From NCBI RefSeq assembly GCF_988243305.1, contig NZ_OZ547136.1: a stretch of 64,000 bases of DNA; one strand, written 5' to 3'. The position numbers were made by a program. Shown here in pieces: positions 1 through 6,000 of this stretch (the first letter of the stretch is position 1; the number at the start of each line of letters is the position of its first letter).

Positions 1-3000
1 TATATTGAACAGCATTCTCGCTATCAAAATAAAGCTAATAACATCCAATTAAGATATGATGATAAGCAGTTTCATACAACGGTTATCAAAGATGTTCTAT
101 TATGGATTGAACATAATTTAGATCAGTCTTTACTGCTTGATGATGTGGCGAATAAAGCGGGTTATACCAAGTGGTATTTTCAGCGGCTGTTCAAAAAAGT
201 AACAGGGGTCACACTGGCTAGCTATATTCGTGCTCGTCGTTTGACGAAAGCGGCTGTTGAGTTGAGGTTGACGAAAAAAACTATCCTTGAGATCGCATTA
301 AAATATCAATTTGATTCCCAACAATCTTTTACACGTCGATTTAAGTACATTTTTAAGGTTACACCAAGTTATTATCGGCGTAATAAATTATGGGAATTGG
401 AGGCAATGCACTGAGAGATCCCCTCATAATTTCCCCAAAGCGTAACCATGTGTGAATAAATTTTGAGCTAGTAGGGTTGCAGCCACGAGTAAGTCTTCCC
501 TTGTTATTGTGTAGCCAGAATGCCGCAAAACTTCCATGCCTAAGCGAACTGTTGAGAGTACGTTTCGATTTCTGACTGTGAACCGCCCCGGGAATCCTGG
601 AGACTAAACTTCCTGAGAAAGAGGTAAACAGGATGACTAAAAATACTCGTTTTTCCCCCGAAGTCCGTCAACGGGCAGTCCGTATGGTTCTGGAAAGTCA
701 GAGCGAATATGACTCACAATGGGCGACAATTTGTTCCATTGCTCCAAAGATTGGCTGTACGCCGGAGACTCTGCGTGTCTGGGTTCGCCAGCATGAGCGG
801 GATACCGGGGGCGGTGATGGAGGGCTCACCACCGCTGAACGTCAGCGTCTGAAAGAGCTGGAACGTGAAAATCGTGAACTGCGCCGCAGTAACGATATCC
901 TTCGCCAGGCTTCCGCTTATTTTGCGAAGGCGGAGTTCGACCGCCTCTGGAAAAAATGATGCCACTGCTGGATAAGCTGCGTGAGCAGTACGGGGTCGGA
1001 CCGCTATGCAGCGAACTGCATATTGCCCCGTCAACGTATTACCACTGTCAGCAACAGCGACATCATCCGGATAAACGCAGTGCCCGTGCGCAGCGCGATG
1101 ACTGGCTGAAGAAAGAGATACAGCGCGTATACGATGAAAATCACAAGGTATACGGTGTGCGTAAAGTCTGGCGTCAGTTGTTACGGGAAGGTATCAGAGT
1201 GGCCAGATGCACTGTGGCACGTCTCATGGCGGTTATGGGACTTGCCGGTGTTCTCCGGGGTAAAAAGGTCCGTACGACCATCAGCCGGAAAGCCGTTGCC
1301 GCAGGCGACCGCGTAAACCGTCAGTTCGTGGCAGAACGACCTGACCAGCTGTGGGTGGCTGATTTTACTTACGTCAGCACATGGCGGGGCTTCGTCTATG
1401 TGGCGTTCATCATTGATGTGTTTGCCGGATACATCGTGGGGTGGCGGGTCTCATCGTCCATGGAAACGACATTCGTGCTGGATGCACTGGAGCAGGCGTT
1501 ATGGGCCCGTCGACCGTCCGGCACGGTCCATCACAGTGATAAAGGTTCTCAGTATGTATCGCTGGCCTACACACAGCGGCTTAAGGAAGCCGGATTACTG
1601 GCATCAACAGGAAGTACAGGCGACTCGTATGACAACGCGATGGCGGAGAGCATCAATGGTCTTTACAAAGCGGAGGTAATACACCGTAAGAGCTGGAAAA
1701 ACCGTGCAGAAGTGGAACTGGCCACACTCACGTGGGTGGACTGGTATAACAATCGACGATTGCTGGAAAGGCTGGGCCATACTCCTCCGGCAGAAGCAGA
1801 AAAAGCTTATTATGCTTCCATCGGAAACGATGATCTGGCAGCCTGAGTTCACAGATAAAACACTCTCCAGGAAACCCGGGGCGGTTCACTGTGTTAGCCT
1901 GGAAGTGCTTGTCCCAACCTTGTTTCTGAGCATGAACGCCCGCAAGCCAACATGTTAGTTGAAGCATCAGGGCGATTAGCAGCATGATATCAAAACGCTC
2001 TGAGCTGCTCGTTCGGCTATGGCGTAGGCCTAGTCCGTAGGCAGGACTTTTCAAGTCTCGGAAGGTTTCTTCAATCTGCATTCGCTTCGAATAGATATTA
2101 ACAAGTTGTTTGGGTGTTCGAATTTCAACAGGTAAGTTAGTTGCTAGAACCCATGGCTCCTTTGCCGACGCTGAGTAGATTTTAGGTGACGGGTGGTGAC
2201 AATGAGTCCGTGTCGAGCGCTGATTTTTTCGGCCTTTAGAGCGAGATTTATACAATAGAATTTGGCATGAGATTGGATTGCTTTTAGTCAGCCTCTTATA
2301 GCCTAAAGTCTTTGAGTGACTAGATGACATATCATGTAAGTTGCTGATAGGTTTCCAGTTTTCCGCTCCTAGGTCTGCATATTGTACTTTTCCTCTTACT
2401 CGACTTAACCAGTACCAACCCAGCTTCTCAACGGATTTATACCATGGCACTTTAAAGCCAGCATCACTGACAATGAGCGGTGTGGTGTTACTCGGTAGAA
2501 TGCTCGCAAGGTCGGCTAGAAATTGGTCATGAGCTTTCTTTGAACATTGCTCTGAAAGCGGGAACGCTTTCTCATAAAGAGTAACAGAACGACCGTGTAG
2601 TGCGACTGAAGCTCGCAATACCATAAGTCGTTTTTGCTCACGAATATCAGACCAGTCAACAAGTACAATGGGCATCGTATTGCCCGAACAGATAAAGCTA
2701 GCATGCCAACGGTATACAGCGAGTCGCTCTTTGTGGAGGTGACGATTACCTAACAATCGGTCGATTCGTTTGATGTTATGTTTTGTTCTCGCTTTGGTTG
2801 GCAGGTTACGGCCAAGTTCGGTAAGAGTGAGAGTTTTACAGTCAAGTAATGCGTGGCAAGCCAACGTTAAGCTGTTGAGTCGTTTTAAGTGTAATTCGGG
2901 GCAGAATTGGTAAAGAGAGTCGTGTAAAATATCGAGTTCGCACATCTTGTTGTCTGATTATTGATTTTTGGCGAAACCATTTGATCATATGACAAGATGT

Positions 3001-6000
3001 GTATCTACCTTAACTTAATGATTTTTACCAAAATCATTAGGGGATTCATCAGCCCGCAGCAACTACAGAACGGTAAATAACATTACCCGGGGGAAGCATC
3101 CGGAGGCGAAACAATGAAACTGGCCCTGACGCTGGAAGCCGACAGCATTAACGTGCAGGCACTGAACATGGGGCGCATTGTCGTTGACGTCGATGGTGTT
3201 AATCTCGCTGAACTGTTTAATAAAGTCGCGGAAAATGGTTATTCACTCCGCGTGGTGGATGAGCGTGTCACTACCGAAACACCGGCGACCTCTGCCAGCC
3301 CTCATCAGTTGCCGGAAGACAATACAGTGATACAGAGCGTAATGCCATTAGCCACAGAAACGGCGCTGGATATTCTGATTGTGTGGCTGCAGGACAATAT
3401 CGACTGCGAATCGGGGATTATCTTCGACAACGATGAGGATAAAACGGATTCGGCAGCACTGTTGCCCTGCATTGAACAGGCCAGGGAAGATATCCATACC
3501 CTGCGCCAACTACAGCTTCTGCACCAGAACCGGTAAATATTACTCACCATACTTCATTCCACTGACGCCAGCCTGAACAGGGCTGGCGTTTTCATTTATC
3601 TGCAAAAAGGAAAAACGATTATGTCTGAAATCACAGTCTCCCGTCCGGAAGTGGTCAACGGACATACGGACGTTATCTGCTCAACCTCAGTCAGCCACAT
3701 TCTGGCTGTACGAAAGAGTACACTGTTGCAAATCGACATACTTATCCGGCAACTGGCTGAAATCTCAGCAATGACAGAAAGTATTGGCGGTAAAACCGCA
3801 CTGGACTGGGCCATGAAACAGGATTTTCGCTGCGGCTGCTGGCTCATGGAGAAACCTGAAACGGCAATGAAAGCCATTACCCGCAACCTTGACCGTGAAA
3901 TCTGGCGTGACCTGATGCAACGCTCCGGGATGCTGTCATTAATGGATGCGCAGACCCGTGATACATGGTACCGGTCACTGGAGTACGATAATTTTCCGGA
4001 AATCAGTGAAGCGAACATTATGAGCACATTTGAACAACTGCACCAGAATAAGGATGAGGTGTTTGAGCGGGGAGTGATTAACGTCTTCAGGGGACTGAGC
4101 TGGAATTATAAAACCAACTCTCCCTGTAAATTTGGCAGTAAAATTATCGTCAACAATCTGGTGAGATGGGGCCGGTGGGGATTTCATCTTATCACCGGAC
4201 CACAGACTGACCGGGTTGCCGACCTGGAAAGGATGCTGCATCTCTTCAGTGGCATCCCCACTCCCGACAACCGGGAAAATATCATAATTCGTCTGGATGA
4301 GCATATCCGGTCTGTTCAGGGTAAAGAGTACTATGAAGACGAAATGTTTATCATTAAATACTTTAAGAAGGGATCTGCACACATCACTTTCAAAAGGCTG
4401 GAACTGATTGACAGAATTAACGATATAATAGTCAGGCACTTTCCTTCTGTGCTCTCAGCCTGATCCCGAGTGTGATTCCCTTTCGATATCAAAAGGGACT
4501 GCGGGTATAATTGAGGGTACATTTTTAATCAAACCAAACAAATCAGATTAATATCAATATGATAAAAGAAATTTTCGATTCCGAGTCCGGCACCACTAAT
4601 TCTTAAGAACCCGCCCACAAGGCGGGTTTTTGCTTTTGGATCTGACAATAACCTTCACGAAAAAACTTAGCTTATAAGGTCTGGGGGAATTACTCTCGCC
4701 ACGTTAACGAGAGTAATTTTATTGATATTAATCTCCTGATACTTTACCCCCGTCCAAACTCCAGCCGCTGCACATTCACCATCCCAGGCTTCTCAGCAGC
4801 ACTGACATCAATTTGTGTCACCCGCAGCGCATATTTTTCATCCAGTGCGTTTAACCATTTCAGAAGGTCATTAAACACCACAGGTTCTATCCAGACCTGA
4901 ATATTCTCCCCACGCTCGGCTATCCGCTTGATGACCACCGAGTGCGCGGAAGCACTGTCACTGATGACCCGCGATACCTGCGCAGGCGTTGTTGTGGCAG
5001 ATTTTCGCGCTGCAATAATATCCGGCGCGGCGCTCTTCAGTCGGGTGTTCATTGCCACCAGCTGCTGCAACATCGTCTCCTGTTGTTCTATCCGTTCGCT
5101 CAACGGCTGCCAGATGAGGACGTAATATCCGGCGCTAAACAGGAACACCGCCGCTGCCAGTAACATGCCTTTTTCACGCGGAGAACGCCCCGCCAGGTGT
5201 TGTGTCAGCCAGTGTTCGCCACGGCTTAACTGGCGTTCACGCCATTGCTGAAAATAGTGAATAAATTTATCGCGTAACATGTTATTTCCTCCGCAACGTT
5301 ACGCCGCCGGAAACCGCATCACCCTCTTTCTGTAACGCGTCCTGTTGCACAACATAATCTGCCGCCAGTGCGCTACGCAGTTTGTCGAAGCTGGCAAAGT
5401 TTGCAGCCCGTAGCTGAAGGTGAAGCGTCTGGCGTTTTTGATCAAAGGTGAAACCACGCATTTCGATGTCGGTAAGTGACGCTGATTTCAGGGTACTGGC
5501 GATCGCTGACAATTCTGCGAGCAGCCGGGTATCGTCGGCCTGCGGGCGATATTTTTTCAGCGCCATCGTCACCTGGGAACGCAAATTCACAATCCGCTTC
5601 TGCTCCGGGAACAGTGTTAAGAACTTTTTTTCCGCCTGGGTGCGGCTTTGCGCCACCTGTTCGCTGACGCTCCATAACGTCACGCCCCGTTCCACTACCA
5701 GCGCAACCAGAATCAGCAATATCGGCAGAATCATCACCCGCCAGCGCGCCCACTGTTTTCGGTAGCTGACACGAGGCTGCCACGGCCCTGTTAGCAGGTT
5801 CCCTTCCGGTTCGCCATAAGTGGTAATGGCTGGCAGAGCCGTAACGGTCAGGCGTTCGGCGTCCGCACCAGCCCATGCAGATAGTTCTTCCGGTGCAATG
5901 CCGACCACGGTTAGCGAAAGCGGTAAATTCTGCTCATTGAGCTGTGCACGGAACATGACCGGAGCCAGCGCCCGCCCGGCGCTCCATCCCCGGCATTCAT

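Follow-up and report, generated by a model that had tools for sequence, protein, structure and literature searches.

The window analyzed here, a 64,000-nt stretch of contig NZ_OZ547136.1 (RefSeq assembly GCF_988243305.1), begins inside a copy of the tetracycline-resistance transposon Tn10 in an Escherichia coli chromosome, and the element studied, at 411..3052, is a single 1329-bp copy of the insertion sequence IS10 on the minus strand, split by a 1310-bp insert of the IS629 type. The inside end of IS10 lies at 411, where the motif CTGAGAGATCCCC begins (in its longer form CTGAGAGATCCCCTCATAATTT) next to tetD, and the outside end lies at 3052, where the outside-end sequence CTGATGAATCCCCTAATGATTT, read on the minus strand, finishes; these two are the only IS10 ends in the window, and shuffled sequences would be expected to give none. 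Because the 410 bp before the inside end (1..410) are identical at 410 of 410 positions to the tetD-IS10 side of the Tn10 in plasmid R478 (NC_005211.1, locus L004 in our comparison set), annotated in the order tet(B)-tetC-tetD (an AraC-type gene)-IS10, the element is the IS10-Right (IS10R) arm of a Tn10. The TGA stop of tetD (412-414) falls within the first bases of the inside end (CTGAGAG), as it does in R478.

When the two IS10 pieces, of 168 and 1161 bp, were joined in silico after removal of the insert and one CTG, the product was exactly 1329 bp long and matched the IS10R of R478 at all but 2 positions (1327/1329). The triplet CTG stands on both sides of the insert and corresponds to IS10 nt 1162-1164 counted from the outside end, where the reference has it once, which places the insertion point 165-168 bp from the inside end; the insert is thus a clean, simple insertion. 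The nesting of an IS3-family element of the IS629 type in the tetD-adjoining IS10, with a CTG duplication, had been claimed in a first-pass annotation made from the sequence alone, and it was borne out base for base, as was a break near IS10 coordinate 1160, about 168 bp from the inside end, on alignment with R478. The insert length of 1310 bp given there also stands, but its description of the terminal repeats as perfect does not, since they agree without mismatch over 14 bp and at 23 of 25 positions overall. As a member of IS10 (IS4 family), the element has the 1329-bp length, both end sequences and RNA-OUT at its outside end; it lacks an intact 402-aa transposase, though the DDE and YREK residues are kept, and is a disrupted IS10, while the position of its inside end beside tetD is that of the IS10R arm of Tn10.

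A copy was assigned to IS629 if it was about 1310 bp long with at least 95% nucleotide identity over its full length to a named IS629, and if it had TG...CA terminal repeats and a 3-4 bp target duplication. The insert has this length, the repeats and the CTG/CTG duplication; it shares 99.2% identity with the sequence annotated as IS629 ORF1/ORF2 in Shigella flexneri pCP301, and complete E. coli genomes contain many copies, both chromosomal and on plasmids, with 100% identity to it over 1310 bp. It starts with TGAACCGCCCCGGG and closes with the complement of TGAACCGCCCCGGG, and the window has this left end a single time, at 579, whereas chance would produce no such site. The overlapping open reading frames (ORFs) orfA and orfB meet at an ATGA after an A6 run in orfA (951-956), which is presumed to be the site of a -1 frameshift and is annotated as a programmed frameshift in identical copies; a predicted stimulatory RNA structure, the ALIL pseudoknot, accompanies it, and OrfB scores above the cut-off of its family model. 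IS629 belongs to the IS3 family and moves by copy-out-paste-in. From its full-length identity, the orfA/orfB pair, the ALIL pseudoknot and the OrfB score, this copy looks like an intact and potentially active element.

RNA-OUT, the antisense RNA of IS10, is intact. The sole mismatches to the IS10R of R478 are at IS10 nt 47 (window 3006) and nt 83 (window 2970), both within RNA-OUT and the 5' end of RNA-IN. The "iso-IS10R" of pCP301 and three other copies share this A47/C83 allele, which agrees with the Rfam consensus for RNA-OUT; the idea that the two differences are unusual was therefore rejected, the allele being present in 4 of 12 other IS10 copies. The window copy looks mosaic, of the iso-IS10R type at nt 47/83 and of the R478 type elsewhere, which would imply that IS10 copies swapped sequence at some time. 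The features of the locus are collected in Table 1.

Table 1. Features of the interrupted IS10R and its immediate surroundings (window coordinates).
Feature	Position	Strand	Basis
tetD, 3' part (AraC/RobA-type regulator gene of Tn10)	1..414	+	R478 identity; NCBIfam RobA/SoxS/MarA-type matches
IS10R inside-end fragment, IS10 nt 1329-1162; orphaned last 49 transposase codons and stop	411..578	-	identical to R478 IS10R
CTG target-duplication copy, left	576..578	.	equals IS10 nt 1162-1164
IS629 (IS3 family), 1310 bp	579..1888	+	100% identical to many E. coli copies
IS629 terminal inverted repeats	579-603 and 1864-1888		14 bp perfect, 23/25 overall
IS629 orfA, 108 aa	633..959	+	ORF list; NF033516 transpos_IS3 profile positions 1-86 matched
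ALIL pseudoknot, frameshift-stimulating RNA element of IS3-family elements	914..1030	+	Rfam RF01497, 120.2 bits vs gathering score 50, full length
IS629 orfB, 296 aa, catalytic part of OrfAB transposase	956..1846	+	NF033516 transpos_IS3, 314.6 bits vs cut-off 160, positions 93-369
Chimeric 405-aa ORF: IS10 transposase residues 1-353 and 52 residues antisense through IS629 right end	1728..2945	-	
CTG target-duplication copy, right	1889..1891	.	equals IS10 nt 1162-1164
IS10R outside-end part, IS10 nt 1161-1; outside end, pIN/pOUT, first 352 complete transposase codons	1892..3052	-	99.8% identical to R478 IS10R
RNA-OUT antisense RNA gene of IS10, intact	2938..3007	+	Rfam RF00240, 99.5 bits vs gathering score 41, full length
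3' remnant (nt 314-378) of cbtA-type toxin gene interrupted by Tn10	3053..3117	+	alignment to uninterrupted loci L011, L012, L017

The chimeric transposase gene and the lost C-terminus

The transposase ORF starts at the native ATG (2945, IS10 nt 108), and its first 353 residues are identical to those of the R478 IS10R transposase. Codon 353 crosses the CTG copy at 1889-1891 into IS629 and changes from GTC to GTG, so that V353 is kept, and from there the frame continues antisense into the right end of IS629. The ORF thereby loses the 49 C-terminal residues of the native protein (RNRNVLSTV...GYALGKL), whose codons persist, orphaned, at 426..575. The ORF and the comparison with R478 thus confirm the truncation of the IS10 transposase and the 405-aa chimera announced by the first-pass annotation, whose total length is right but whose division into 351 and 54 residues is corrected to 353 and 52. 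It had also proposed checking that the last residues are unlike the Tn10 transposase: the check, run on the 52-aa foreign tail, gave a best blastp match of E = 0.46 to residues 8-38 of the native protein, away from the native tail, and the foreign tail does not resemble the native transposase in any meaningful way.

The chimera keeps the DDE and YREK residues (D97, D161, Y285, R288, E292 and K299) and the whole Pfam DDE_Tnp_1 domain, at residues 90-327. Its score of 374 bits against the curated NCBIfam cut-off of 152 for NF033591 (IS4) means that it can be taken for a transposase, although the profile was matched only over positions 1-299 of 340. The warning that the chimera would be mistaken for an intact transposase is therefore justified, and there is a precedent: in E. 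coli EC21GDE043 (locus L001) the Prokaryotic Genome Annotation Pipeline (PGAP) annotated a chimeric 271-aa ORF as an "IS4 family transposase" with no flag, while in other comparable loci PGAP sometimes flagged the pieces as incomplete pseudogenes. For annotation this matters in that an ORF of near-native length, above the family cut-off and yet broken, may be reported by pipelines as an intact Tn10 transposase.

The weight of the lost segment was judged from its relatives. Among 1.84 billion representative proteins searched, 3390 relatives were found; almost all of those of full length have 385-402 aa. Across an alignment of 120 of them, with approximately 31-57% identity to IS10, D97, D161, R288, E292 and K299 are invariant, and the consensus motif FQANTxxxRRVLS straddles the break, so that its RRVLS part is lost; S360, at least 90% conserved, also falls in the lost part. 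The AlphaFold2 model built from that alignment has a mean predicted local distance difference test score (pLDDT) of 93.3 and places helices at 361-370 and 378-396 of the lost segment, with a pLDDT of 89-96 by 10-residue block over 351-390. The best fold matches of the model in the PDB are Tn5 transposase synaptic complexes (E = 1.6e-11, template modelling score 0.60); a sequence search of PDB chains with the IS10 transposase gave no match, and the link to Tn5 comes from fold comparison alone. In the Tn5 transposase, the C-terminal-helix mutation G462D abolished both activity and formation of the paired-ends complex, and the C-terminal helix was reported to be necessary for synaptic complex formation (PMC6182136 and reference cited there). 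As a conserved and structured C-terminus is lost and the C-terminal helix of Tn5 is needed for synapsis, the chimera probably fails to synapse the ends or to form a paired-ends complex, and so is probably inactive.

On the other hand, the chimera might still be active thanks to its intact DDE/YREK core, which would leave Tn10 autonomously mobile; the retention of all catalytic residues and of the complete DDE_Tnp_1 domain speaks for this. We consider it decidedly unlikely, since the 49 residues lost are conserved and well structured across the family, the equivalent region of the Tn5 transposase is essential for synapsis, and an unrelated tail of 52 residues stands in place of the native one.

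Origin of the structure and consequences for Tn10

The account that we regard as very probable is that one IS629 transposition into the IS10R arm of a chromosomal Tn10 truncated the transposase and left a chimera that is probably inactive. The insertion of the 1310-bp IS629 duplicated the CTG and cut off the last 49 transposase codons, together with the inside end, from the remainder of IS10R; the gene now encodes 353 native and 52 antisense-IS629 residues, with the catalytic residues kept and RRVLS and the last two helices lost. IS10R normally encodes the functional transposase, a protein with a preference for action in cis, whereas RNA-OUT works in trans (PMC5006887); the transposase of IS10-Left is reported to be inactive (PMC11148124). 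If the chimera fails to assemble the paired-ends complex, the IS10R transposase would be gone and Tn10 would be mobile only with transposase supplied in trans. Because both ends, RNA-OUT and every IS10 base are intact, the arm should remain usable as a substrate for such transposase and as a source of antisense repression, and RNA-OUT, still encoded, could go on repressing other IS10 copies. Precise excision of IS629, which is known and is stimulated by IEE (bioRxiv 10.1101/2023.06.07.543989), would restore a wild-type IS10R since no IS10 base was lost. The suggestion of the first-pass annotation that this Tn10 is probably immobilized unless IS10-Left is functional appears reasonable.

Several considerations weigh against this account. 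The immobility of Tn10 hinges on IS10-Left and on other IS10 copies, all of which lie outside the window. Many Tn10 copies of the present day may carry two almost identical arms, and transposase could then come from IS10-Left. Additionally, the inactivity of the chimera is argued only from conservation and from Tn5, and a literature search for C-terminal truncations of the Tn10 transposase found nothing relevant.

It may also be imagined that the 405-aa chimera, which has the N-terminal end-binding region and the catalytic core and lacks the C-terminal helices, acts together with RNA-OUT as a trans-dominant inhibitor of other IS10 copies. We hold this to be highly improbable; if true, IS629 would turn IS10R from a transposase source into a repressor locus, and precise excision could reverse the change. 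Under the simpler account of a truncated and probably inactive transposase, the tetracycline-resistance transposon at this site is probably without its own transposase source and likely to be fixed unless helped in trans, which is of interest for resistance epidemiology. The nested insertion itself is ordinary, both elements and the phenomenon being already well known, and the understanding of IS10, IS629 and Tn10 is unchanged by it.

Other nestings, chromosomal setting and comparison with known elements

At least 5 other complete E. coli genomes carry IS629-family elements within IS10; these occupy five further positions and occur in both orientations. Two are IS629 copies in the IS10-Left (IS10L) of Tn10, at IS10 nt 761-765 in EC21GDE043 (L001) and at nt 1250-1256 in E. 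coli EC11 (L007). Two IS629-family elements are in the IS10R of Tn10, at nt 364-366 in E. coli 23CRST009 (L002, NZ_AP045766.1) and, in the opposite orientation, at nt 835-840 in E. coli O111:H8 strain 7-32 9A (L040, NZ_CP077585.1). A fifth, also in the opposite orientation, is in an IS10 at nt 186-191 (L039). An apparent bias toward one orientation (4 of 4 cases) was rejected as an ascertainment artefact of a search that combines only pieces lying on the same strand: with the IS629 inverted in a synthetic query, the opposite-orientation cases appeared and the bias was gone. The reverse nesting was also seen, with IS10 in an IS629-like element at nt 189-197 in two strains (L003, 3001-5648, and L008, 2501-5148) that share the 9-bp duplication GACTCTGCG and have different flanks; the 2648-bp composite of L008 is flanked by GGAC on both sides, as though it had transposed as a unit.

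The presence of IS629-family elements within IS10 in these genomes might suggest that IS629 prefers IS10 as a hot spot and that the nesting is directed. This is very unlikely, given that the six insertion points all differ, that both orientations occur and that the cases are a handful among 5,426 complete genomes holding tens of thousands of copies. As there is no shared insertion site, the nesting is an accidental meeting of two abundant elements and not the product of a targeted system.

The exact junction of the window is absent from the 5,426 complete E. coli genomes, where only a split, non-contiguous match was obtained, and the plasmids of PLSDB hold no nested equivalent. Scans for the exact 36-nt junction gave 0 matches in species-representative genomes and 0 in the metagenomes of the Joint Genome Institute (JGI), and an exact look-up of the 405-aa chimera in a collection of 15 billion proteins returned no record. 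For strain typing, the junction provides a unique marker, with no occurrence in any collection searched. A multi-step origin, by recombination between two IS10 or two IS629 copies each holding part of the structure, would accord with the apparent mosaicism of this IS10 copy at nt 47/83; it is scarcely credible, because the same CTG on each side, together with an IS10 that continues without a break across the insert, is what one simple insertion leaves behind, and recombining IS629 copies from different sites would give unequal flanks. An assembly artefact, in which separate IS10 and IS629 copies were misjoined through their repeats, has a probability close to negligible: both elements are multicopy repeats in E. 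coli and no other collection searched contains the junction, but a misjoin would not give a clean 3-bp direct duplication and IS10 pieces totalling exactly 1329 bp, and analogous clean nestings exist in finished genomes.

Beyond its outside end, IS10R is joined to a cbtA-type toxin gene of 378 nt, which Tn10 interrupts at nt 313. The first 9 bp past that end (3053-3061), CCCGCAGCA, are the presumed Tn10 target and match the usual Tn10 target consensus poorly. The second junction of Tn10 falls upstream of position 1, as do IS10-Left, the jem genes, tetR, tetA and tetC. The cbtA-type gene belongs to a CP4-like island beside the gsp type II secretion genes, sslE and the glc operon of the E. coli chromosome, and related loci with the exact flanking proteins DUF5983_N, DUF4942 and GspE are many, none of them with Tn10. 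For the core genes at 44-64 kb, identity with the best complete genomes of E. coli is 98.9%. The gsp-sslE region (window 4700-24000) is approximately 96% identical to the best of the 5,426 complete RefSeq E. coli genomes and 99.98% identical to several draft assemblies, and the adjoining pheV-side island varies within that lineage.

One of the closest known arrangements is the canonical Tn10 of R478, which has the same tetD-IS10R junction over 410 bp and an IS10R that differs at 2 of 1329 positions; its IS10R is uninterrupted, however, and the transposon is plasmid-borne, whereas the Tn10 of the window lies in a chromosomal cbtA gene. The nestings of L040 and L002 (IS1203/IS629-family) involve the same element families and the same tetD-adjoining arm of Tn10, and the transposase gene is split in both, so that, on the sequences compared, loss of the IS10R transposase through IS629-family insertion is recurrent, these being independent insertions. 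Their inserts are only about 96% identical to the IS629 of the window, and their breaks remove catalytic residues that the break in the window spares. Conversely, the IS629 copies of L001 and L007 are 100% identical to that of the window and have the same relative orientation in IS10, but they lie in the other arm of Tn10, IS10-Left, which adjoins a gltS-like gene. With respect to the protein, among solved structures the Tn5 transposase comes closest to the model of the IS10 transposase, although the sequence identity between the two is only 12-14%, and the Tn5 inhibitor protein Inh arises by N-terminal truncation, unlike the chimera of the window, in which the C-terminus is lost.

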